From the IMG/VR virus record IMGVR_UViG_2548876696_000013: DNA of 16,659 nt; one strand, written 5' to 3'. Shown here one piece after another: positions 1 through 16,659 of the stretch. Made by a program: the position numbers and the translations under genes. Each line of letters opens with the position of its first letter. Within the stretch, counting starts at the first letter, position 1. Source of the DNA: a virus (taxonomy: Duplodnaviria > Heunggongvirae > Uroviricota > Caudoviricetes). The notes under the pieces were generated by a model. The model was not told the origin of the DNA and made no database searches. It saw only the letters and a list, made by a program, of their open reading frames with translations.

Positions 1-1461
1 ATGAAAAAATTACTGCGTCTTTTTTTCCCGCTCTCGCTGCGGGTACGTTTTCTGTTGGCAACGGCAGCGGTAGTACTGGTGCTTTCGCTTGCCTACGGAA
101 TGGTCGCGCTGATCGGTTATAGCGTCAGTTTCGATAAAACTACGTTTCGGCTGTTACGTGGCGAGAGCAATCTGTTCTATACCCTTGCGAAGTGGGAAAA
201 CAATAAGTTGCATGTCGAGTTACCCGAAAATATCGACAAGCAAAGCCCCACCATGACGCTAATTTATGATGAGAACGGGCAGCTTTTATGGGCGCAACGT
301 GACGTGCCCTGGCTGATGAAGATGATCCAGCCTGACTGGCTGAAATCGAATGGTTTTCATGAAATTGAAGCGGATGTTAACGATACCAGCCTCTTGCTGA
401 GTGGAGATCATTCGATACAGCAACAGTTGCAGGAAGTGCGGGAAGATGATGACGACGCGGAGATGACCCACTCGGTGGCGGTAAACGTCTACCCGGCAAC
501 ATCGCGGATGCCAAAGTTAACCATTGTGGTGGTGGATACCATTCCGGTGGAGCTAAAAAGTTCCTATATGGTCTGGAGCTGGTTTATCTATGTGCTCTCA
601 GCCAATCTGCTGTTAGTGATCCCGCTGCTGTGGGTCGCCGCCTGGTGGAGTTTACGCCCCATCGAAGCCCTGGCAAAAGAAGTCCGCGAACTGGAAGAAC
701 ATAACCGCGAATTGCTCAATCCAGCCACAACGCGAGAACTGACCAGTCTGGTACGAAACCTGAACCGATTGTTAAAAAGCGAACGCGAACGTTACGACAA
801 ATACCGTACAACGCTCACCGACCTGACCCATAGTCTGAAAACGCCACTGGCGGTGCTGCAAAGTACGCTGCGTTCTCTGCGTAGTGAAAAGATGAGCGTC
901 AGTGATGCTGAACCGGTAATGCTGGAGCAAATCAGCCGCATTTCACAGCAAATTGGCTACTACCTGCATCGTGCCAGTATGCGCGGCGGGACATTGCTCA
1001 GCCGCGAGCTGCATCCGGTCGCCCCACTGCTGGACAATCTCACCTCGGCGCTGAACAAAGTGTATCAACGCAAAGGGGTCAATATCTCTCTCGATATTTC
1101 GCCAGAGATCAGCTTTGTCGGTGAGCAGAACGATTTTGTCGAGGTGATGGGCAATGTGCTGGATAATGCCTGTAAATATTGCCTCGAGTTTGTCGAAATT
1201 TCTGCAAGGCAAACCGACGAGCATCTCTATATTGTGGTCGAGGATGATGGACCCGGTATTCCATTAAGCAAGCGAGAGGTCATTTTCGACCGTGGTCAAC
1301 GGGTTGATACTTTACGCCCTGGGCAAGGTGTGGGGCTGGCGGTAGCCCGCGAAATCACCGAGCAATATGAGGGTAAAATCGTCGCCGGAGAGAGCATGCT
1401 GGGCGGTGCGCGGATGGAGGTGATTTTTGGTCGCCAGCATTCTGCGCCGAAAGATGAATAA
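1..1461 (+). CDS. phoQ: Sensor histidine kinase PhoQ, complete (486 aa)
   Basis: Full-length ORF. Translation shows two TM segments flanking a periplasmic sensor domain with the acidic patch EDDDDAE, an H-box ([10 protein letters not shown]) and ATP-binding G-boxes ([15 protein letters not shown]). Recognised from memory as enterobacterial PhoQ; not verified by search. Confidence 0.95.
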
Positions 1462-2603: not shown

Positions 2604-4265
2604 TTACACCCCGCTAAATTCTTCCAGTTTCTGGCGGTGGCTGTCGCTTATATCAAAAGCAAAATCCTCATGCTCTGCCTGGAATGTACCAAACGCCATC
2701 AGCGCCGCTACGCTCGGGTCTATCTTGTTCGGTGATTTTTTCTTGTTCGGCTTGATATTGGCGTTCGCGTCACTCTGCATCACGACGTTACTCATCGACC
2801 AGGACAACACCGGATCGCCACGATGCACAATCACCCTGCGGTTAACAAAAACTTCGAACGATTTCGCCGCCGGACTGAATCTGAGGTAGGTTTGCGGGAA
2901 CGGCTCCACCTCAAAACCAGCCCCCTGTAATTGCGTCCTGAGATGCGTGGCGTTCCACGTATCAAAGCCCACCAGCCTGATATTAAATTTCTCCGCATCC
3001 TGCATGATGTCATCTCTGATCCGGTCGTAATCAATGCAGTCACCTGGCGTTGTGCGTATCCAGCCCGCTTTAGCCCACTGGCGATAGACAGCGCGGTTTT
3101 TATTGGCGGGGTTCTGTAGCTGGAACTCCGGCAGATAATGACGGGAAACCAGCATGATATTTTTACCGACCGGAAAGGCATAGCACACGCTGGAAATATC
3201 GCTGGTTGATGATAAGTCCAGCCCCGCGTAACACTCCTGCCCGTGTAAATCTTCCTCCGTGAACGTTCCGGCACACTCAGCCCATGCGCCGTTACCCATC
3301 CACGGGGTAGCCCCCTGGCACCAGATATTAAATCGCTTTGTCATCATCTCCACCCATTGCGACGGAATACCCCGCGCTTTCTGGATGGTTGAGGCCAGTT
3401 TTTCACGATCCACGGAAACATCGATGTTAGGGTTAGCCTTTATCCACATCGCCGGATCATCAACCTCGTTTTCGTCGTCCAGCTCGTAAATCAGCACAAA
3501 AATTGAATCGTTGACCTCTTCGCCGTCCAGGATCTGGCAGCAATAATCATAGTGCTGTTTACAGGTTGAAACGACGTTACTGCCCGATGTGGTAATGGCA
3601 AATAACAGCCCTTCGGGACGTGCGCCCATCCCCAGCTCAAGCGCGGAATAAACGCCGTTATCGGGGTGTAGGTGGTATTCGTCCACGATGGAAAGGCTGG
3701 GGTTTGTTCCCTCGATGGTTGCCGCTTTTGCTGCCAGCGGCTTTAACAGGCTGTTGCTTTTCGGGTGCATCACCTTGTGGGCCTGAATATTCACCCGCCT
3801 GCGTAACGGTCGGGATAAAAGGCACATCTGACGCGCATCATCAAAAACGATCCGCGCCTGGTCACGGCTCACCGCTGCGGTGTAAATATCCTGCTGCCCG
3901 TTCTCCATAATCAGAAACCAGTTAGCCAGAATCGCGGCGGTCGTGGATTTCGCATTTTTGCGCGGCACTTCGATAAAGGCGCTCGTGTATTTGCGCCGTC
4001 CGGTGGCCTTAACCTTAAAGCCGAGGATGCACGCAAAGGCGAACTGCTGCCACGGCTCCAGCTCAATGGGTCTGCCACGCATCGGCCCTTTTACGTGCGG
4101 GCACACCCTGGAAAAGGCAATAAACCGCTCCACAACCTCACGATCGAACGTGTAAAGGGGGCTTTCAAGGTCCGAAAAGTACCGTTTAACGGCCTGTTTC
4201 AGCCGTTTACAGGCCGGAATTTTGCCCGTTTTTACGTCTTCTGCGTACTTATTCCAGGCGGTCAA
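2604..4265 (-). CDS. terL: Terminase large subunit (553 aa)
   Basis: N-terminal ATPase with Walker A-like VPRKNAKST and a C-terminal nuclease region; its start overlaps the 3' end of the TerS gene. Confidence 0.9.
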   Translation of the reverse strand: MTAWNKYAEDVKTGKIPACKRLKQAVKRYFSDLESPLYTFDREVVERFIAFSRVCPHVKGPMRGRPIELEPWQQFAFACILGFKVKATGRRKYTSAFIEVPRKNAKSTTAAILANWFLIMENGQQDIYTAAVSRDQARIVFDDARQMCLLSRPLRRRVNIQAHKVMHPKSNSLLKPLAAKAATIEGTNPSLSIVDEYHLHPDNGVYSALELGMGARPEGLLFAITTSGSNVVSTCKQHYDYCCQILDGEEVNDSIFVLIYELDDENEVDDPAMWIKANPNIDVSVDREKLASTIQKARGIPSQWVEMMTKRFNIWCQGATPWMGNGAWAECAGTFTEEDLHGQECYAGLDLSSTSDISSVCYAFPVGKNIMLVSRHYLPEFQLQNPANKNRAVYRQWAKAGWIRTTPGDCIDYDRIRDDIMQDAEKFNIRLVGFDTWNATHLRTQLQGAGFEVEPFPQTYLRFSPAAKSFEVFVNRRVIVHRGDPVLSWSMSNVVMQSDANANIKPNKKKSPNKIDPSVAALMAFGTFQAEHEDFAFDISDSHRQKLEEFSGV

Positions 4266-4605
4266 GCTCGTCCTCTTCTTCTGTTTCCGGTGGATTTTTA
4301 CGGCGGCTTATCGGGTCAAAACCGAGCAAAGAGGCCATTTTTATCATCACTCTTTCAGCGTCGGATTTTGCGCTTAATGCGGGGTTTCTGCTCTCGCCGC
4401 CCTGACTGTTAACAATGCTGAACCCGCGCGCCGCAAGGTCTGCAACGGCTTTCCGGTAAATGGAGTAGTTGACACAATACAGTTCCAGATTGCTCCAGTC
4501 GGCGGGGGTCAGGTCTCCCCGTTCCGCAAGCTGCCTAGATTTTTCCCGCCACTGCTTCACGGCGATATCATCCAGGTAGGCGGGGGCTTTCGGTGGTCTT
4601 GCCAT
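4249..4605 (-). CDS. terS: Terminase small subunit, P27-like family (118 aa)
   Basis: Small basic protein immediately upstream of and overlapping TerL. Sequence pattern resembles the P27 small-terminase family (from memory). Confidence 0.75.
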   Translation of the reverse strand: MARPPKAPAYLDDIAVKQWREKSRQLAERGDLTPADWSNLELYCVNYSIYRKAVADLAARGFSIVNSQGGESRNPALSAKSDAERVMIKMASLLGFDPISRRKNPPETEEEDELDRLE

Positions 4606-4893
4606 GCTTATTTTTCGCCAGATTATTTTTCAAAAAATTCCCGTGCATAAAAATTTGAGGAGGCGTTCGGTGCCCGGCGGGGTCGGGTTTGTCCTGAAAA
4701 CGCCCCCCACCCCGTCATACAGCCTCATCAGCGATTGCGGAAACATTCCATAACCTCGCGGTCACGGTCGGTTAATCGCTTCGCTGTGATGCGTTCTGCG
4801 CGTCCTGACGCTTTATCTTTATGCCCTGTTTCCTGTGTCTTCCATGCGTCACGCTGCCTTATAAGTCCACGGATAAGGCGGTTTTGTTCCCGC
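4606..4893 (-). other. Candidate cos / packaging-initiation region (non-coding gap between HNH and terS)
   Basis: 288-bp gap in an otherwise tightly overlapping operon. Contains a GC-rich stretch (4664-4720: gtgcccggcggggtcgggtttgtcctgaaaacgccccccaccccg). In HK97-like cos phages the cos site sits between the HNH gene and terS. Confidence 0.35.
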
Positions 4894-5334
4894 TCATTCA
4901 TCGGCGTCATACATCCAGTTATTGCGGTTAGCGGCCCGTTCTTCCTCTTCACGAAATCCACCTGCGGCACGCTTGCTTTTTGTTGCCGGATCAAGCCATT
5001 TCGTTTTCTGGTTATGACACGCCTGGCACAATGGCTGATGGTTCCATTCGGGCCAGAAGAGAACATCATCACCGCCATTAATCGGGATAATGTGATCCAC
5101 CACCACGGCGGGCGTATATATCCCCTTCTCAAGGCATCGCACGCATAACGGGTTTTTACTCAGATACATGGCGCGGTATTTGTCCCACTGTCTGGAATAT
5201 CCACGCGCGCGGCGGTGTCCTCGTCTGGCATCCTCTGCACGCCATGCCGCCCGCCTGTGCTCCTCACACTTGCCGGATTTAACGCGCCTGTTACAGCCTG
5301 GTTCTGTGCATCGTCTTAATGGTTGCCACGGCAT
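4894..5334 (-). CDS. HNH endonuclease, packaging-associated (146 aa)
   Basis: Cys-rich zinc-finger-like segments (CTEPGCNRRVKSGKCEEH, CVRCLEKG, CQACHNQK) and an HNH-like core (VVDHIIPI...WNHQPLC). Position directly upstream of the terminase genes. Confidence 0.85.
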   Translation of the reverse strand: MPWQPLRRCTEPGCNRRVKSGKCEEHRRAAWRAEDARRGHRRARGYSRQWDKYRAMYLSKNPLCVRCLEKGIYTPAVVVDHIIPINGGDDVLFWPEWNHQPLCQACHNQKTKWLDPATKSKRAAGGFREEEERAANRNNWMYDADE

Positions 5335-5630
5335 CAGTACACCCCCACATCACGGTAAGCCGTCCAGAGTGCGCCAATCGTCATGGGTACGCGTGTTTTT
5401 GCGTTATCCGCGACAATCTGGCGATTCTCATACAGGTGAGCGATAAACATCATGCAGCCAATCTTTATGGCTGGCGTGAACTCCAGCCCGTCATCAAAGC
5501 GCCTGCCTATATGTATCTGGCACGCCTCAAGCGATGCGGCAATGTATCCGCTGATTAACTGGTCTTCCTCGTCGCCATCGATACGGCAATGGAGTTTCAC
5601 TTCTTCCAGGGTGATAAGTTCTTCTGTCAT
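5334..5630 (-). CDS. Head-tail connector protein, gp6-like (98 aa)
   Basis: Size, position after the head-closure gene, and N-terminal LEEVKLHCRID motif typical of gp6-like connector proteins. Start overlaps the upstream stop by 4 nt. Confidence 0.7.
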   Translation of the reverse strand: MTEELITLEEVKLHCRIDGDEEDQLISGYIAASLEACQIHIGRRFDDGLEFTPAIKIGCMMFIAHLYENRQIVADNAKTRVPMTIGALWTAYRDVGVY

Positions 5631-5965
5631 TTTTCCGCGCCCTCACGACAAAGAATTTCAAGGCGTGTCCTGGCGGCATCCGGCAGCGGCTGCCCGATGA
5701 TATTCAGTACACGCCCCGCCAGCGGCCCCGTATTGACCTTTATCCGGCTGGTGGCGCTGATGTCCTTCCGGTACCGTATCCAGATCCTTACGGTACCAAT
5801 CGCCAGCTCTGCACCCGATGAAATGGCCTCCTTGCTGCTGACCATGTTCACGCTTGCCCAGAGTGTGTGACTGTCCTCCCACGTTTCGAGTATTTCGCCA
5901 GTTATATCCCTGGTCTGTTTCAGGGTCTGAATCGTTACCCTGTCACGCAGTCGCCCTATGTTCAT
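5627..5965 (-). CDS. Head closure / head-tail adaptor protein (112 aa from the internal start MNIGRLRDRVTIQ)
   Basis: The start chosen is the ATG overlapping the portal stop (ATGA at 5962-5965). The GRLRDRVTIQ motif is typical of this family. The longer ORF reaching 6007 would overlap the portal gene. Confidence 0.65.
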   Translation of the reverse strand: MNIGRLRDRVTIQTLKQTRDITGEILETWEDSHTLWASVNMVSSKEAISSGAELAIGTVRIWIRYRKDISATSRIKVNTGPLAGRVLNIIGQPLPDAARTRLEILCREGAEK

Positions 5966-12430: not shown

Positions 12431-12658
12431 TTATTCTCCGGTGTGGGGCGCTTTATTATTTTCGTGAATTGCCATCGCCTTATCCAGTTCATCAATTACA
12501 GGCGATAGTAATGTCTGAACGGCGGCAAATATTAATGATGCAGGTTCTCCACCATCTTCCGGCACGTCTATTAACTTAATTAACAGCGCATTCATTTCAC
12601 GCGCTTTAATTAATGCGTTTTCAGAATGAATAAGAACATCATAGGGTATTTTATGCAT
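12431..12658 (-). CDS. Hypothetical protein (75 aa)
   Basis: ORF whose start overlaps the stop of the upstream small gene by 8 nt (ATGCATAA). No family recognised. Confidence 0.5.
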   Translation of the reverse strand: MHKIPYDVLIHSENALIKAREMNALLIKLIDVPEDGGEPASLIFAAVQTLLSPVIDELDKAMAIHENNKAPHTGE

Positions 12659-12821
12659 GACTCACCCCCTGACGAATACGGGCGACAAAAATCAGATGTG
12701 CGCGCGGCAACTGGGCGCGGGCTTCGCGTTCAGTGGCTGCGGTAACGGTGTAAATATCAATGCTGCTGTGGTGGCACTGCATAAAGCGCCAGACAAAGTA
12801 AGGGCGTGCGGATACAGCCAT
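12651..12821 (-). CDS. Small protein, paralog B (56 aa core; possibly Icd-like). A longer 150-aa form starting at 13115 is also possible
   Basis: Shares FVWRF, TEREAR and ARIRQG motifs with paralog A. A synonymous codon difference in the shared ARIRQG segment supports coding on this strand. Start is ambiguous. Confidence 0.45.
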   Translation of the reverse strand: MAVSARPYFVWRFMQCHHSSIDIYTVTAATEREARAQLPRAHLIFVARIRQGVSHA

Positions 12822-13107
12822 GTGAAAGGCTCCCAGATGAAATTTAAGGAGTCTCGCTACTACGCTGCTAAACGGGGTGGCGAGACGTAACAGGGTTAGC
12901 AGACTGGTCATCTGGAAACCAGCGAGCGCAAAGGCTCCCCCGTTACGCCCCGCCATAATGCGGGTATGGGTAGGTTTACGGACACAAAAAAACCGCTTAT
13001 CGGATATGGGCGGCTGTCCGCCAGATGTATTCAGGCTGCTAAACCCGGTCGCCATGTGGGCGACGGGTGAAGCATACAGCCCCGTTATAATTTTTTGCAA
13101 GCGGCTT

Positions 13108-13305
13108 TTACTCATGATGTGACCCCTGACGAATACGAGCGGCAAATACAGCAACACAACCGGACGGGCAACGGTTACGCGCTTCGCGTTCCGTCCAGGC
13201 GGTGACGTGGATGATTTGAGATTCTCCGGCACTCAGGGCCAGAAAACGCCACACAAAGGCCGTTTGTGTGTGTACAAGGTGTGGTATATGATTTACGGCA
13301 ACCAT
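13108..13305 (-). CDS. Small protein, paralog A (65 aa); possible host cell-division-inhibitor Icd-like protein
   Basis: Strong SD (GAGGAG 6 nt upstream of the ATG). Paralogous to 12651-12821. The Icd-like call rests on an uncertain memory of the family pattern. Confidence 0.5.
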   Translation of the reverse strand: MVAVNHIPHLVHTQTAFVWRFLALSAGESQIIHVTAWTEREARNRCPSGCVAVFAARIRQGSHHE

Positions 13306-13336
13306 AACGGCTCCTCGTTTACGTTGTTGGTTAGAA

Positions 13337-13377
13337 GCCCCGTATGTGTTCCAGCACTGCGGGGTTTCGTCTTTTCT
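13337..13377 (+). terminator. Hairpin (ccccg / cgggg stem, conserved 17-nt loop) with a U-rich tail; plus-strand terminator-like element, copy 1
   Basis: Seen in sequence. A near-identical element, including the loop, occurs at 14083-14124. Confidence 0.45.
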
Positions 13378-13394
13378 GTACCTTGCATCAACAA

Positions 13395-13476
13395 GGTGTA
13401 AGACACAATGTAAAATAACGGTGTCTTACACGTCAACCCTTCAAAATATTTTTTTTTCGTGTATATTGTCTTACAC
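13395..13476. promoter_or_regulatory. Divergent promoter/operator region with three GTCTTACAC sites (one inverted pair and one direct copy)
   Basis: GGTGTAAGACAC at 13395-13406 is the reverse complement of GTGTCTTACAC at 13421-13431; a third copy lies at 13467-13476. A possible sigma70 promoter (TTCAAA, 16-nt spacer, TATATT) sits at 13440-13467. Confidence 0.5.
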
Positions 13477-13497
13477 CAAAAACATGAGGGGTTAAAC

Positions 13498-13677
13498 ATG
13501 GCAACGGGGCCAAAGAATGCAAAATCACAATCTGTAACTGCACGTATTGCCCATGAAATTATTGAAGGCATGGAGAACGTGAAAGAAGAAGGTGAAAGCA
13601 CGGGGCAGTTTATAAACGCAGCCATGCGCGGCGAAATCAAACGCCGCCAGCGTCGCAAGGCCAAAGAATCAGAATAA
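13498..13677 (+). CDS. Ribbon-helix-helix (CopG/Arc/MetJ-like) DNA-binding protein (59 aa); candidate repressor
   Basis: GAGGGG SD 7 nt upstream of the ATG. Beta-strand/helix/helix pattern (QSVTARIAHEIIEGMENVKEEGESTGQFINAAMRGEI) and a basic C-terminal tail. Confidence 0.55.
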   Translation: MATGPKNAKSQSVTARIAHEIIEGMENVKEEGESTGQFINAAMRGEIKRRQRRKAKESE

Positions 13678-13734
13678 TCACTATCAGCGCCGTGGTGTGA
13701 GGTACTACGGCGCATTGCTTTACAGGGCAGTATC

Positions 13735-13962
13735 ATGACCAACAACACACTATCACCAATACAAGACACGCAAACGCAAGATGATGAAATCATCCGGCAA
13801 AGGCAGTCAGAAGCCTGCGCCAGACTTGAGGAAGAACTAACCAGAACAAAAATACCACCACCAGCGCCGCGCTTAGTGCCACCAGAAAAATTTGCCCTTG
13901 AAGATTTTGTCGATAAATACCCACGGCGGCTTAAATCCGGCAAAAACCGACCGCCAGGATGA
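13735..13962 (+). CDS. Small hydrophilic protein (75 aa), partner of the RHH protein, module 1
   Basis: Paralogous to 14420-14623 (both start MTN; shared motif F-x-L-[ED]-[DE]-F-[VL]-x-K-Y-[PS]-R). Weak SD. Confidence 0.4.
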   Translation: MTNNTLSPIQDTQTQDDEIIRQRQSEACARLEEELTRTKIPPPAPRLVPPEKFALEDFVDKYPRRLKSGKNRPPG

Positions 13963-14082
13963 GTGCACAAAACCGAACTATGAAACGGATTATTCCGTTT
14001 CCGGGGCGTTTGTGTGTGTATAAAGAGTAAGCTATGCTCTTTTATAGCCATAATCGTTACCTCAATTAATGGTTTGGTTAGA

Positions 14083-14124
14083 CGCCCCGTATGTGTTCCC
14101 ATCACTGCGGGGCGTTGTTTTTTG
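14083..14124 (+). terminator. Rho-independent terminator-like hairpin (CGCCCCG / CGGGGCG) plus TTGTTTTTTG, copy 2
   Basis: 7-bp stem, 18-nt loop nearly identical to the loop at 13343-13359, then a T-rich tract. Confidence 0.5.
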
Positions 14125-14130
14125 TGCTAG

Positions 14131-14164
14131 TTGTGTGTAATGTGTATATACACATAAACACATT
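14131..14164. promoter_or_regulatory. Operator-like 16-bp perfect palindrome ATGTGTATATACACAT (14140-14155) overlapping a putative -10 element
   Basis: Perfect palindrome seen directly. Possible promoter TTGTGC (14122-14127), 17-nt spacer, TATATA (14145-14150). Confidence 0.45.
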
Positions 14165-14182
14165 ATATGGGGTGTAATTGAC

Positions 14183-14362
14183 GTGTCAACACACAAGAAT
14201 GAAAGGCGTGGTAATCCTCCTTTCCAGTTCCGTTTAGATCCTGACTTACGGGAAAAGATGGAAAAAGCACAACAACAAGACGGTGATGACTCTTTAGCTG
14301 CTTGGATAAAACGAATAATCCGAAAAGAATTACAGCAACGCGGTATTGAACCCAAAGAATAA
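14183..14362 (+). CDS. Arc-like ribbon-helix-helix protein (59 aa, GTG start)
   Basis: Absent from the supplied ORF track because it is only 59 aa. GGGGTG SD 8 nt upstream of GTG at 14183. The pattern PPFQFRLDPDLREKMEKAQQQDGDDSLAAWIKRIIRKEL matches the Arc/RHH fold. Confidence 0.5.
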   Translation: MSTHKNERRGNPPFQFRLDPDLREKMEKAQQQDGDDSLAAWIKRIIRKELQQRGIEPKE

Positions 14363-14419
14363 AAAACATCAGCGCCGTGGCGTGAGGAACTCCGGCGCAT
14401 TGCTTTACAGGTACACACA

Positions 14420-14623
14420 ATGACCAATAAAGAATCAACCAATACACCATCGCAAAAAACGAACAGAGAGCACGAAAATATGGCGCTCGAGCATGAATCA
14501 GAAAGATTCGCTCCATGCGCTTTTGTCCTTGATGAGTTTCTAAAAAAATATTCACGTTCTGAACGGATGAAAATGGCAGCACAATACGGCCCCAACAAGC
14601 AAGGTAATTGCCCACCAGCCTGA
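14420..14623 (+). CDS. Small hydrophilic protein (67 aa), partner of the RHH protein, module 2
   Basis: Paralog of 13735-13962; preceded by the same conserved hairpin element. Confidence 0.4.
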   Translation: MTNKESTNTPSQKTNREHENMALEHESERFAPCAFVLDEFLKKYSRSERMKMAAQYGPNKQGNCPPA

Positions 14624-14697
14624 TAGCGGCTATCATTCCCGTGCTTATGTTTGGGATCACATACACATAAGGCGCAGCAGGTTAATTGTTCAGAAAG

Positions 14698-14726
14698 GCG
14701 GCTCCATATCGGGGCCGCTTTTTTTA
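14698..14726 (+). terminator. Strong Rho-independent terminator (GCGGCTCC-atatc-GGGGCCGC then T7)
   Basis: 8-bp GC-rich stem with one G-U pair, 5-nt loop, seven T's. Ends the plus-strand modules and lies convergent with the alpA 3' end. Confidence 0.75.
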
Positions 14727-14866
14727 TGCCTGAAAAACCCCAATTTTGTTGTTTTTCAGTTTCACCAGGGCGAACGAATCCCCGCCCACGTTCGGGCGCA
14801 TATTCAATCTTCATAGTTATATCTCTGTATTAGTGGATGTGTGGCGACTGTGTGCCGCCAGTCTTT

Positions 14867-15055
14867 TTAGTGAACTGCCTTGCAGCTATCCTTCCAGGCC
14901 AAAACCTCAGATAAAGACCAGCCAACAGAACGCCCACCAAGTTTACGACGTGATGGGAATTGTCCGGCCTTTTCCAGGCGGTAGCGGCATGAGCGGCTAA
15001 GGCCTGTTAGCTTTTCGCATTCTTTTTCACGTATAAACCGATCAGTGCTTAACAC
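14867..15055 (-). CDS. alpA: AlpA-family phage regulatory protein / excisionase-like HTH (62 aa, GTG start)
   Basis: Motif KLTGLSRSCRYRLEKAGQFPSRRKLGGRSVGWSLSEVLAWK is typical of the AlpA/Vis family. SD AAGGGGG lies 7 nt upstream of the GTG. Confidence 0.85.
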   Translation of the reverse strand: MLSTDRFIREKECEKLTGLSRSCRYRLEKAGQFPSRRKLGGRSVGWSLSEVLAWKDSCKAVH

Positions 15056-15429: not shown

Positions 15430-16659
15430 TTATTTTATTCTGGTTACTGGTAGCGTGGTTACGTTTTCATGTGTTCCCGCCAGTATCTCCAACCGCTCCA
15501 CCCACATATCAAGCGCATTGCGTTTCGCATCAATATAGCGGGAATGGTTGTACACGCGTTGCATTCCTGGCATCTGGTGGCCTGTAAGCTGCTCCACGAC
15601 GTGAGGATCAACGCCTAAATCGTTCAGCATGGTTGTAAAGGTGCGCCGGATGTCATGCAGTGACCAGTGAGGGTGTTTAAGCCTCCTGTGCACCAATCTG
15701 CCGTACTGCGATACGCTGGTTTCCTGTTTCACTTCCCCCAGCAATAAGCCCGTGTGCCTGTTCTGCTCCACCAGCTGCGTGACGAACGGCAGTATCGCTT
15801 CCGGTATGGGCCGGAATATGGCTACCTTCGTTTTGCTGTGCTCCTTCGGAACGGTCCAGAGCATTTCGGTAAAATCCCACTCGCCGATCTCCGATAACCT
15901 CAGTTCTACTGTCCGGCATCCGAAAACAATCAGGAGGCGGATTAGTGCGACGTAGTAAGGGGAAAATATTTTTTTGTCCAGTGCCTGCAATAATTCGCCA
16001 AGTTCTTTGTTACTTAAGACACGCTCACTTATATCCGGTTTTTTCCCAACGTCCGCCACACTCATATCATCAAGAACGTTGCTGATTGCATAGCGCCGCT
16101 TCCTGCAGAACTTAAGCGCCTGCTTGCATGTCTGTAGCAGGAACCCGGCGGAAACAGGGGCTTTCTTTGCCACCCGATCAAAACAGGCCAGCCAGTGCCG
16201 TAGCTCGCATTTATCCAGCGGCATAGGGCCAATGTGCTGTATTACGTGATTATTTAGCCGCTTTTTCAGTGGGTCATAATCCACACGGTTTTCCTTTGCG
16301 TACGACTCAAGCCAGTAGGTGAGCGCATCGCCAACCGTTACCGGCTTTAACGCTTCCTGTACGGTGTAATTCATTTCATGACGTGGATTTTTCCCCTCTG
16401 CCAGCCATGCGCGACACTGGGCGGCTTTTTCCCTGGCTGATTTCAGGCTCAGATCAGGATAATTTCCCAGCTTAATGCGTTCCGGTGGTGCCCCCCTTCC
16501 CGTTCCGGCCCTGTAAGTGAAATACCAGGTTAAAAGGCCACTGGTTGAATGCCTGACGCTCAGGTTTCCACCGTCATTAAGAAAGGCTGTTTTTTGGGCG
16601 GGTGTGCCGTTGATTTTCCTCAGCTGTGTATCGCTCAGTTTGTTAAGTGCTCTGCTCAT
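15430..16659 (-). CDS. int: Tyrosine site-specific integrase, P4-like (409 aa; start codon is the last three bases of the window)
   Basis: N-terminal arm-binding-like region (LSDTQLRKI ... DGGNLSVRHSTSGLLTWYFTYR) and a C-terminal catalytic region with conserved R, HxxR and Y (HDIRRTF ... YNHSRYID). The upstream RBS is outside the window, so the true start could lie further out. Confidence 0.9.
   Translation of the reverse strand: MSRALNKLSDTQLRKINGTPAQKTAFLNDGGNLSVRHSTSGLLTWYFTYRAGTGRGAPPERIKLGNYPDLSLKSAREKAAQCRAWLAEGKNPRHEMNYTVQEALKPVTVGDALTYWLESYAKENRVDYDPLKKRLNNHVIQHIGPMPLDKCELRHWLACFDRVAKKAPVSAGFLLQTCKQALKFCRKRRYAISNVLDDMSVADVGKKPDISERVLSNKELGELLQALDKKIFSPYYVALIRLLIVFGCRTVELRLSEIGEWDFTEMLWTVPKEHSKTKVAIFRPIPEAILPFVTQLVEQNRHTGLLLGEVKQETSVSQYGRLVHRRLKHPHWSLHDIRRTFTTMLNDLGVDPHVVEQLTGHQMPGMQRVYNHSRYIDAKRNALDMWVERLEILAGTHENVTTLPVTRIK

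Follow-up and report, generated by a model that had tools for sequence, protein, structure and literature searches.

Ribbon-helix-helix cassettes antisense to an open frame beside alpA: a candidate repressor layer in an enterobacterial phage-inducible chromosomal island

The IMG/VR record IMGVR_UViG_2548876696_000013 (Caudoviricetes) is a DNA of 16,659 nucleotides (nt), termed here the window, which holds the host gene phoQ (1–1461, plus strand) followed by a complete capsid-forming phage-inducible chromosomal island (PICI). This report concerns the stretch from position 13,337 to 14,726, to which the plus-strand genes of the island are confined. Two units lie there in a row, each with a gene for a ribbon-helix-helix (RHH) protein and a second small gene, called the partner, and both run against the minus-strand genes that make up the rest of the island. 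The first-pass annotation described them as tandemly duplicated modules and proposed either a repressor switch of the island or a two-gene system of toxin-antitoxin-like or defence type.

Two plus-strand cassettes

The two units consist of the following features.

13327–13378, plus strand: Block A copy 1, with conserved leader TTGGTTAGA, predicted terminator hairpin and T-tract
13498–13677, plus strand: RHH1, 59 amino acids (aa), ribbon-helix-helix protein of the YlcI/YnfO family
13683–13731, plus strand: Block B copy 1, intercistronic, with a hairpin; reaches the first partner codons
13735–13962, plus strand: partner 1, type II, 75 aa (..FALEDFVDKYPRRLKSGKNRPPG)
13963–14073, no strand assigned: inter-unit spacer, apparently derived from the 5′ end of an icd-like gene, with minus-strand reading MAIKEHSLLFIHTQT from ATG 14051
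14074–14126, plus strand: Block A copy 2, predicted terminator of unit 1 (−23.3 kcal/mol, z = −4.8)
14183–14362, plus strand: RHH2, 59 aa, GTG start, Arc-like ribbon-helix-helix protein
14368–14416, plus strand: Block B copy 2, intercistronic, with a weak hairpin (z = −0.29)
14420–14623, plus strand: partner 2, type I, 67 aa (..ERFAPCAFVLDEFLKKY..)
14698–14726, plus strand: predicted intrinsic terminator at the end of the array, with a U7 tail (−21.7 kcal/mol, z = −3.6)

All four plus-strand open reading frames (ORFs) are present where the first-pass annotation had placed them, and in E. coli relatives with about 95% identity to the window they are also annotated as genes by the Prokaryotic Genome Annotation Pipeline (PGAP). 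The 2015C-3905 record has an intact ORF for partner 1 but no annotation of it. The ORF of partner 1 is conserved in relatives. Among allelic relatives of the RHH genes, the variable columns at codon positions 1, 2 and 3 number 1,1,14; 1,0,25; 17,3,35; 0,0,4; and 1,0,7, and the ratio of non-synonymous to synonymous polymorphism (pN/pS) in the sense frame is 0.0–0.18, which is below every antisense frame. The Arc type of RHH2 gives the set 1,1,14 with a pN/pS of 0.036, and its differences amount to 50 synonymous and 2 non-synonymous changes in sense versus 36 and 16 in the aligned antisense frame. Judged by this substitution pattern, the plus-strand ORFs are real genes.

That both 59-aa proteins belong to the RHH class was a correct reading, although they are related to each other at profile level only, with no BLASTP alignment between them. 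RHH1 matches the NCBIfam YlcI/YnfO family NF041551 with 64.8 bits (E = 5.2e-18; curated cut-off 30 bits) and has a confident ribbon-helix-helix structure model with structural matches to TacA1 and MazE9; the N-terminal strand and two helices of the superfamily are present within a domain of about 45 residues. RHH2 reaches 20 bits against NF041551, under the cut-off of 30 bits and so outside the YlcI/YnfO family. It matches PHROG 228, “Arc-like repressor” (E = 1.5e-6), and aligns end to end with the YlcI-family profile in hhalign (88% probability, E = 3e-6). Against Pfam Arc (PF03869), RHH2 gave no match at E ≤ 1, and three of six allelic relatives match with a best E of 0.0079. The YlcI/YnfO family is widespread in Enterobacterales. 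We found no functional literature on YlcI/YnfO, a tblastn search of a phage collection with RHH1 returned no match, and searches of Pfam, PADLOC and PDB sequences with all four proteins yielded nothing useful.

Some YlcI-type variants are longer (about 100 aa) and carry an extra C-terminal helical domain (..ARRQAEGSGENPLVSSLDALAQVEKIGIKAAEEIGQLV..), corresponding to PHROG 6522, ahead of a conserved RRKAKESE tail. The ylcI gene of K-12 (prophage DLP12; 5752–5946 in its locus) is a lone opposite-strand gene directly beside cos/nohD and has no BLASTP similarity to RHH1. The YlcI family name therefore spans very divergent RHH proteins in different contexts, and on the same two grounds we dropped the idea that DLP12 ylcI marks an immI-type region.

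The non-coding parts shared by both units, which the first-pass annotation had pointed out, are the Block A and Block B repeats. Block A is 96% identical between 13327–13352 and 14074–14099 and 79% between 13351–13378 and 14099–14126; Block B is 80% identical over 75 nt (13671–13745 vs. 14356–14430) with a near-identical core. Both copies of Block A, as well as the final hairpin at 14698–14726, fold much more weakly on the minus strand and are followed by a T-tract on the plus strand. Block A copy 1 reaches −23.3 kcal/mol (z = −5.4) on the plus strand versus −13.2 on the minus strand, and the final hairpin falls to −13.2 kcal/mol (z = −1.1) when folded on the minus strand. Across 19 variants the Block A stem is kept by compensatory changes, and the plus-strand fold is more stable in 18 of them. 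By these folds, the Block A copies and the final hairpin are terminators acting on the plus strand, in agreement with the earlier description of a hairpin with T-tract in both units (z = −5.4 and −4.8) and a strong terminator closing the array. The intercistronic hairpin fares less well: the block around it is conserved as described, but in unit 2 its stability is poor.

The coding parts have diverged far more than the shared blocks, the RHH proteins showing no BLASTP similarity and the partners 25% identity around one motif, and we therefore consider the array a juxtaposition of two heterologous cassettes rather than a recent tandem duplication. Since most related islands carry a single cassette, among them EcCICFT073, O157:H7 (EDL933 type) and strain 042, the term “tandemly duplicated” is misleading; the arrays also bring together different RHH families. 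The spacer resembles the 5′ end of the icd-like gene (MAIKEHSLLFIHTQT vs. MVAVNHIPHLVHTQT), so the array looks like a product of recombination between islands and not of local duplication. In the spacer, the Shine-Dalgarno sequence GAGG overlaps the stop of an upstream minus-strand ORF, and a TTGTGT-17-TATGCT element lies at 14010–14038.

Operators, promoters and the second gene

Repeated or palindromic sequences and promoters occupy the region ahead of each RHH gene.

13395–13406, 13421–13431 and 13467–13477, no strand assigned: candidate operators O1, O2 and O3 of unit 1 (GGTGTAAGACAC, GTGTCTTACAC and TGTCTTACACC), a repeated sequence
13436–13431 (−35) and 13412–13407 (−10), minus strand: predicted leftward promoter of unit 1
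13440–13467, plus strand: predicted rightward promoter of unit 1
14138–14189, no strand assigned: control region of unit 2, with a perfect 16-bp palindrome (halves ATGTGTAT and ATACACAT) at 14140–14155
14189–14162, minus strand: predicted leftward promoter of unit 2, TTGACA-16-TATAAT, matching the consensus at 12/12 positions, its −35 overlapping the RHH2 start codon

The earlier suggestion of operator-bearing promoter regions in both units is thus supported by candidate sites of two kinds, repeats in unit 1 and a palindrome in unit 2. A pattern search with Block B recovered 72 IMG/VR contigs, which together with annotated loci and the window make up a set of 90 cassettes. Each allele of the recognition strand among YlcI-type RHH proteins has its own 10-mer, for which the usual positions relative to the ATG are about −103, −75 and −30; at least 10 such alleles carry their 10-mer two to four times, and nine carry it at least three times. 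The 10-mer of unit 1 occurs in three copies at −103, −75 and −30 in alleles of Escherichia coli, Enterobacter and Pectobacterium that share the recognition strand, and here KSQSVTARIAHEII pairs with operator GGTGTAAGAC in E. coli, Enterobacter hormaechei and Pectobacterium (there IPHEII, one residue different). Arc-type alleles carry palindromes of their own. From the co-variation of these allele-specific sites with the strand sequence, we infer that RHH dimers bind the repeated or palindromic operators.

A leftward sigma-70-like promoter (TTGA[CA]N, 16–18 nt, T[AG]NNNT) keeps a constant position in 42 of the 49 unique upstream regions. The −35 of this promoter lies at −61 in YlcI cassettes and overlaps the start codon in Arc cassettes, where TTGACA stands at +7 from the start codon in 15/16 unique regions. 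Of the 33 unique regions from YlcI cassettes, 26 have a plus-strand −10 (TATA[CT]T, at −36 or −35) ahead of the third operator. From these positions, the operators would therefore cover both the RHH promoter and the opposed leftward promoter.

Among the 90 cassettes, 38 different RHH ORFs and 31 different partner ORFs form 57 combinations. RHH genes are of three types, YlcI-short, YlcI-long (with the extra C-terminal domain) and Arc-like, and they combine freely with both partner types; O157:H7 and 042, for example, share one partner behind an Arc-type and a YlcI-type RHH gene, respectively. In the 12 two-cassette loci, partner type follows position without exception, type II being alpA-distal and type I alpA-proximal, and the RHH types vary. 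A rule that a type II partner always precedes a second cassette was dropped because several single cassettes carry type II.

Both partner types share the motif (R)FALExF[LV]xxY, which continues as PRRLKxxKNRPPG in type II and has several alternative tails in type I. The AlphaFold2 model of partner 1 consists of a helix at 8–37, a proline-rich linker, a helix at 54–61 over the motif and a disordered tail, with a predicted TM-score (pTM) of 0.35 and no globular fold. The type I core is constrained: 12 DNA variants encode 7 proteins, with 6,3,12 variable columns by codon position and a pN/pS of 0.17. Partner 2 matches PHROG 21027 (unknown function) with E = 2.2e-12. A profile search of 5.8 billion proteins collected 120 partner clusters at 90% identity, without a Pfam domain and nearly all named hypothetical; those with a named host all come from Escherichia, Shigella or E. 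albertii. Scanning 1.84 billion representatives exhaustively with HMMER gave 28, all with the same motif and few of them new, and the ten most divergent that we examined were from E. coli or unnamed read assemblies and offered no functional lead. The statement that no family could be assigned to the partners thus stands, as they form an orphan family restricted to Escherichia. A search of PDB sequences for partner relatives found none, and comparison with the toxin families of Pfam, NCBIfam and PADLOC gave nothing significant. The defence models of PADLOC-DB 2.0 produced noise only (HEC-01B, E = 0.028; Cas8g, 6e-4 over a low-complexity stretch).

Other second genes occur in the same position, namely an unrelated 79-aa protein in Enterobacter and a lipoprotein-like 47–50-mer in Pectobacterium and some E. 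coli cassettes. The latter has a signal-peptide or lipobox-like N-terminus (MLKLKKHVPMMVALIITIFLLISC.. and MKKILCWLGILLMALFLLKSC..) and is located at about +914..+1067 from Block B in two loci and at 4190–4333 in another. It is of a kind common to E. coli and Pectobacterium satellites and may be an exclusion lipoprotein. We read the second position as a variable slot that would be co-transcribed with the repressor, and not as a cognate partner. We also considered an N/boxB-like role for the partner, in which an arginine-rich peptide would bind RNA at the Block B hairpin, and set this aside because RKRRRRK is absent from both partners in the window and the unit 2 hairpin is weak.

An open minus-strand frame between alpA and the RNA immunity region

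The cassettes are crossed on the opposite strand by a chain of two long ORFs that begins beside alpA.

14867–15055, minus strand: alpA, island activator (Pfam Phage_AlpA, E = 5e-18), convergent with the cassettes; role from PMC6092414
14062–14814, minus strand: ORF A, 250 codons, starting 52 nt after the alpA stop
13293–14105, minus strand: ORF B, 270 codons, start probably at ATG 14051, antisense through unit 1

ORF A passes antisense through the array-end terminator, partner 2, Block B, RHH2, the operators and Block A copy 2, sharing its third codon positions with the sense frame. Its stop overlaps the Shine-Dalgarno sequence GAGG 8 nt before ATG 14051, and ORF B stops 10 nt past the ATG of the icd-like gene. 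Such openness recurs in other islands: of 89 cassettes, 88 have a minus frame without stops across at least 95% of the span of RHH gene plus partner. The frame is open in 38/38 distinct RHH coding sequences versus 21 expected from synonymous permutation, and in 40/41 partner coding sequences versus 26.7. For the promoter and Block A segments, which are non-coding, 25 of the 37 unique sequences have it open versus 6.1 under dinucleotide shuffling, and the other two minus frames are open in none of the 37. Whole cassettes (514–708 nt) are open in all six dissimilar representatives, each with a null probability of 0.01–0.085; the joint P of about 6e-10 is optimistic, since the alleles are phylogenetically related and share conserved blocks.

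The longest single minus frames reach 607, 485 and 333 codons. The start codon of the frame, an ATG, lies just to the right of the cassette in eight or more unrelated settings, several of which have a good Shine-Dalgarno sequence, and among 56 loci the frame ends in frame with the icd-like gene in 15 and within 60 nt of the icd-like start in 38, so that it is nested or coupled in 53. O157 has a 314-aa minus ORF in frame with the icd-like gene, Enterobacter a 428-codon ORF that runs from inside the alpA 3′ end across the RHH cassette, and Pectobacterium a 389-codon ORF that starts 20 nt after alpA and also crosses it; the second genes in these Enterobacter and Pectobacterium cassettes are unrelated to the E. 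coli partners. By these counts, openness of the minus frame is conserved and non-random across allele classes and genera, and both strands appear to matter. The first-pass annotation would have given way to genuine minus-strand genes in this interval; a conserved open minus frame is indeed present, yet the amino-acid constraint is on the plus frame.

PGAP calls minus-strand pseudogenes over the cassette in O157:H7 TW14359 (2760–3353, minus strand) and strain 042 (2976–3423, minus strand), named “Icd-like, missing C-terminus” and “hypothetical”, and it leaves the plus-strand RHH and partner genes of O157 unannotated. The segment between the array terminator and alpA (14727–14866) is nearly invariant among the window, O157 and 042; it contains the start of ORF A (MKIEYAPERGRGF..) and a second hairpin at 14841–14863, and it may hold AlpA-dependent control signals. 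One Enterobacter island has an AntA/ANT gene, resembling Bro-network anti-repressors, at 4709–5488 on the minus strand between an HTH_17 regulator and the RHH cassette, which is the slot of the long minus ORF in other islands.

Leftward of the cassettes, and outside the coordinates of the stretch under study, lies an RNA immunity cassette (12873–13077) with its surrounding ORFs.

13264–13292, plus strand: promoter-like element TTGTGT-17-TATGAT, putative origin of a transcript of about 80 nt that would lie antisense to the icd-like translation start and end at Block A
13108–13305, minus strand: icd-like ORF, predicted first target downstream of the leftward promoters
13028–13077, minus strand: c4 a1b1 target (Rfam, 44.4 bits, E = 2.5e-9; gathering cut-off 46.7)
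12986–13064, minus strand: isrK-like element with terminator (Rfam, 36.8 bits)
12873–12960, minus strand: C4 RNA (Rfam, 71.6 bits; gathering cut-off 45)
12651–13232, minus strand: eta/kil-like ORF with Icd-like C-terminus, 193 codons, containing a1b1, the isrK-like element and C4

The icd-like ORF overlaps the start of the 193-codon ORF. C4 and its upstream target lie on the same strand below an early promoter, as in P4/P1-type RNA immunity, and order and spacing match P4. In P4 the same elements (a1b1, isrK, C4) are likewise found inside the eta ORF, which shares 49 nt with the end of vis, the homologue of alpA. The minus frame of the window resembles an eta/kil-type nested ORF in that it starts after alpA, contains an early promoter and ends at an Icd/Kil-like gene. 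According to the summary in PMC10111431, P4 makes full-length Eta from the upstream late promoter alone, in translational coupling with the alpA homologue, and this translation prevents termination. Since the leftward promoter is predicted to feed the icd-like, a1b1, isrK and C4 elements, the RHH cassette would thus add a protein repressor before an RNA immunity device of P4/P1 type.

The TTGTGT-17-TATG[AC]T element is found at a fixed −63/−64 from Block A in 30/30 unique sequences that represent three diverged classes of icd-like N-terminus, and it is retained even where the overlapping icd-like codons specify different amino acids. Its putative product, antisense to the ribosome-binding site and start codon of the icd-like gene, resembles sar RNA of P22. 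Block A had been considered as a target of C4 RNA; this was dropped, as Rfam places the a1b1 target at 13028–13077 and Block A is a predicted plus-strand terminator.

As for the island as a whole, Pfam identifies genes for TerL, TerS, portal, prohead protease, major capsid protein, a RepA-type AAA_25 helicase, AlpA and integrase, all on the minus strand, with the tyrosine integrase at 15430–16659. This inventory of int, alpA, replication gene, capsid, portal, protease, TerS and TerL, the absence of tail and lysis genes and a size of about 15 kb agree with the capsid-forming PICIs of the EcCIEDL933 type (family described in bioRxiv 10.1101/2022.09.08.507074). E. coli relatives about 95% identical to the window are inserted between phoQ and roxA, the site of the prototype EcCICFT073, and the island of the window shares that site beside roxA. 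The placement of the cassettes between alpA and the replication genes, noticed in the first pass, holds in 78/78 loci, with int/alpA on one side and icd-like/RepA on the other. A DNA search of the phage collection returned a sole match of 78 nt at the Block A region in three records. It corresponds to window positions 14046–14123 (79.5% identical, the stretch of icd remnant and Block A copy 2), and its carriers are Klebsiella phage P12620-1 (106 kb) and two “phage” records of 2–3 kb.

A candidate switch, its alternatives and known systems

Taken together, the interval is best explained as the protein layer of an enterobacterial PICI immunity and induction switch, present in two heterologous copies, with the RHH proteins as allele-specific maintenance repressors; we give this reading a probability of roughly 0.55. 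The cassettes probably keep the island silent. Each would be a self-contained plus-strand unit of operators and promoter, RHH gene, conserved spacer, small second gene and terminator. In the quiescent island, the RHH protein would be made from its own promoter and bind its allele-specific operators; as these overlap both promoters, binding should therefore autoregulate the cassette and shut the opposed leftward promoter, which would feed the icd-like gene, the a1b1–C4 RNA immunity cassette and the replication genes. Leaky leftward transcription would be caught by the a1b1/C4 device, and two cassettes would provide two locks or two immunity specificities. The second slot in Escherichia would hold the orphan protein of helix, linker and short FALExF helix, co-transcribed with the repressor. 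Upon helper induction, alpA is transcribed and activates itself (PMC6092414). The AlpA-activated leftward transcript, by analogy with P4 eta/kil, may then be translated through the open minus frame and so escape premature termination, running head-on over the repressor operon, helping to switch the island on and reaching the icd-like, C4 and replication genes. That the RHH proteins bind DNA and repress, that the minus frame is translated and that transcription interferes are all inferred here from sequence.

A more specific form of this switch, which we offer only tentatively, codes on both strands, with the repressor operon on plus and an alpA-linked frame on minus whose only purpose would be to let ribosomes follow RNA polymerase. 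The translated, AlpA-activated transcript might then escape Rho- and C4-dependent termination and silence the operon head-on, RHH and AlpA would together form a bistable switch of convergent transcription on which PICI induction depends, and the at least 10 operator specificities would mark heteroimmunity groups among Gram-negative PICIs.

Several observations weigh against the repressor switch or its parts. Over-expression of AlpA alone induces EcCICFT073, so a repressor is not strictly required (PMC6092414). The leftward promoter is missing by pattern in 7 of the 49 upstream regions, the O157 allele has a poor leftward −10 (TGCTAT), and the rightward promoters reach 9/12 matches at most. Outside the type I core the partners are weakly constrained (overall pN/pS 0.19–0.74), and their Shine-Dalgarno sequences are weak. 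Block B is strongly conserved without explanation, and its hairpin is weak in unit 2. The translations of the minus ORFs match no family, and their amino-acid sequences are unconserved and junk-like; under the synonymous-permutation null, 55–65% of the coding parts already have an open antisense frame, and the relatedness of alleles noted above counts on the same side. Finally, the score of the a1b1 target is just under the Rfam cut-off.

Of the explanations that compete with the switch, the best placed, though unlikely, takes the second genes for accessory cargo (superinfection exclusion, anti-phage function or helper interference) beside a repressor, as rexAB stands with lambda cI, and the RHH protein for a local regulator. 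It is favoured by a slot that may hold type I, type II, a lipoprotein-like 47–50-mer or a 79-aa protein within an operon that should be active while the island is silent, and by the rapid, genus-restricted diversification into 120 clusters. However, the proteins are tiny and largely unstructured, none has a PADLOC match above noise, and the overlap of the operators with a conserved leftward promoter is left unexplained. A repressor/anti-repressor or repressor/co-repressor pair, in which the small protein binds RHH or AlpA and tunes the switch, seems to us rather improbable. Small modulators of phage repressors do exist, such as P1 Coi and Lxc, both genes here share one operon, and the partner, with its long helix and conserved amphipathic FALExFLxxY helix, resembles a protein-binding peptide. 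Yet its conserved core does not follow the RHH family, it is found only in Escherichia whereas the RHH proteins and the layout span Enterobacterales, and an anti-repressor encoded together with the repressor that it counters would defeat itself without separate regulation.

Strand assignment could also be argued differently. PGAP's minus-strand “Icd-like” pseudogenes in O157 and 042 and the long minus ORFs found everywhere would suit a locus where only the minus strand codes, in an Icd- or eta-like manner, and the plus ORFs are shadows; conversely, the minus openness might be a functionless by-product of composition, as a wobble-aligned antisense frame is open in 55–65% of synonymous permutations. 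Either is very unlikely given the constraint on the plus frame in the Arc type, the curated family and confident RHH model of RHH1 and operators that co-vary with the recognition strand on the one hand, and on the other the excess of openness in non-coding segments in the continuing frame only, the six open whole cassettes, the recurrence in other genera with unrelated second genes and the ending at the icd-like start in 53/56 loci. The least probable reading is a type II toxin-antitoxin system with the RHH protein as autoregulating antitoxin and the small protein as toxin, serving to stabilise the island or in abortive infection. Gene order, operators at the promoter and a weak VapB-like NCBIfam match (E = 0.012, under the cut-off) speak for it, but the short RHH forms lack the C-terminal toxin-binding extension, the partner is a helix-linker-helix protein without globular fold or toxin-family match, and the operators also cover the leftward promoter of the island early operon. 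Furthermore, every combination of RHH type and partner type exists, O157 and 042 place the same partner behind different RHH families, and other genera have unrelated second genes; with nothing significant from PADLOC, Pfam and NCBIfam, the cognate two-gene toxin-antitoxin-like or defence system of the first-pass annotation finds no support. Its other proposal, a regulatory switch of the island, remains the most plausible, with heterologous cassettes in place of duplicated ones.

The founding paper on Gram-negative PICIs left it unclear whether they have a global repressor and described induction via the activator AlpA (PMC6092414). The cassette is present in both model islands (EcCICFT073 and the EDL933 type) and in satellites of other genera, with the anatomy expected of an allele-specific repressor whose operators lie over an early promoter. 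If the repressor switch is true, it fills the gap of a maintenance function, satellites that circulate together should fall into immunity groups, and operator swaps and RHH deletions become simple handles for engineering PICI-based delivery vehicles. Conserved minus openness over real genes would be a rare, testable case of selection on antisense translatability and a mechanistic link between PICIs and P4. It also bears on annotation pipelines, which now call minus-strand “Icd-like” pseudogenes over these cassettes.

Among known systems, the closest to the proposed switch is the immI region of P22 (Mnt, Arc, Pant/Pmnt). There too, small RHH repressors act on operators between or over opposed promoters, one direction making the repressor and the other driving an operon that is kept off in maintenance; RHH2 matches the PHROG “Arc-like repressor”, and the short antisense RNA sar over a translation start is paralleled by the putative element ending at Block A. 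The differences are that the operon to be repressed here is the icd-like/C4/replication operon of a satellite and not ant, that sequence similarity to Arc is marginal (no Pfam Arc match for the window protein, best E = 0.0079 among relatives), and that here many operator specificities exist and the cassette is embedded in an antisense ORF. The P4 immunity region shares the alpA/vis-type gene followed by a long same-strand ORF that overlaps or follows its end, has an internal early promoter (PLE in P4) and leads into a1b1, an isrK-like terminator, C4 RNA and an Icd/Kil-like C-terminus. In contrast to P4, whose corresponding stretch lacks genes on the other strand and whose PLE lacks a protein repressor, the islands have 0.7–1.4 kb of genes, promoters and terminators antisense inside the long frame, and an extra icd-like copy.

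More distant is Stl (Rpr) of SaPIs and other Gram-positive PICIs, which is not an RHH protein and has an unrelated fold. The resemblance is one of placement and logic, as its repressor gene lies beside int, on the other strand from the genes for replication and packaging, and the control region is shared (PMC6092414). Gram-negative PICIs differ in that induction proceeds through AlpA. Type II toxin-antitoxin systems with RHH antitoxins (TacA, ParD, RelB, MazE) have the same order of RHH gene, small gene and promoter operator, but the pairs seen here are non-cognate, lack a toxin-family match and a toxin-binding extension, and have a replaceable second gene. In the convergent-promoter switches of 186 and P2, repressor and lytic or induction transcripts run toward each other and can interfere; here the overlap comprises a whole operon of 0.7–1.4 kb, including an ORF on the incoming strand, and interference may occur likewise. 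A later survey of PICI organisation reports Bro-network proteins and C4/isrK RNAs in this zone; a text search of it found no mention of RHH, Arc-type repressors, CopG, DUF3950 or opposite-strand genes, and our literature search found no paper on an RHH repressor in these islands. The parts are thus of known kinds, RHH proteins with operators as in P22 immI and C4 with an eta frame as in P4, and what is new is their combination and the antisense embedding of the operon in a frame that stays open across alleles and genera.

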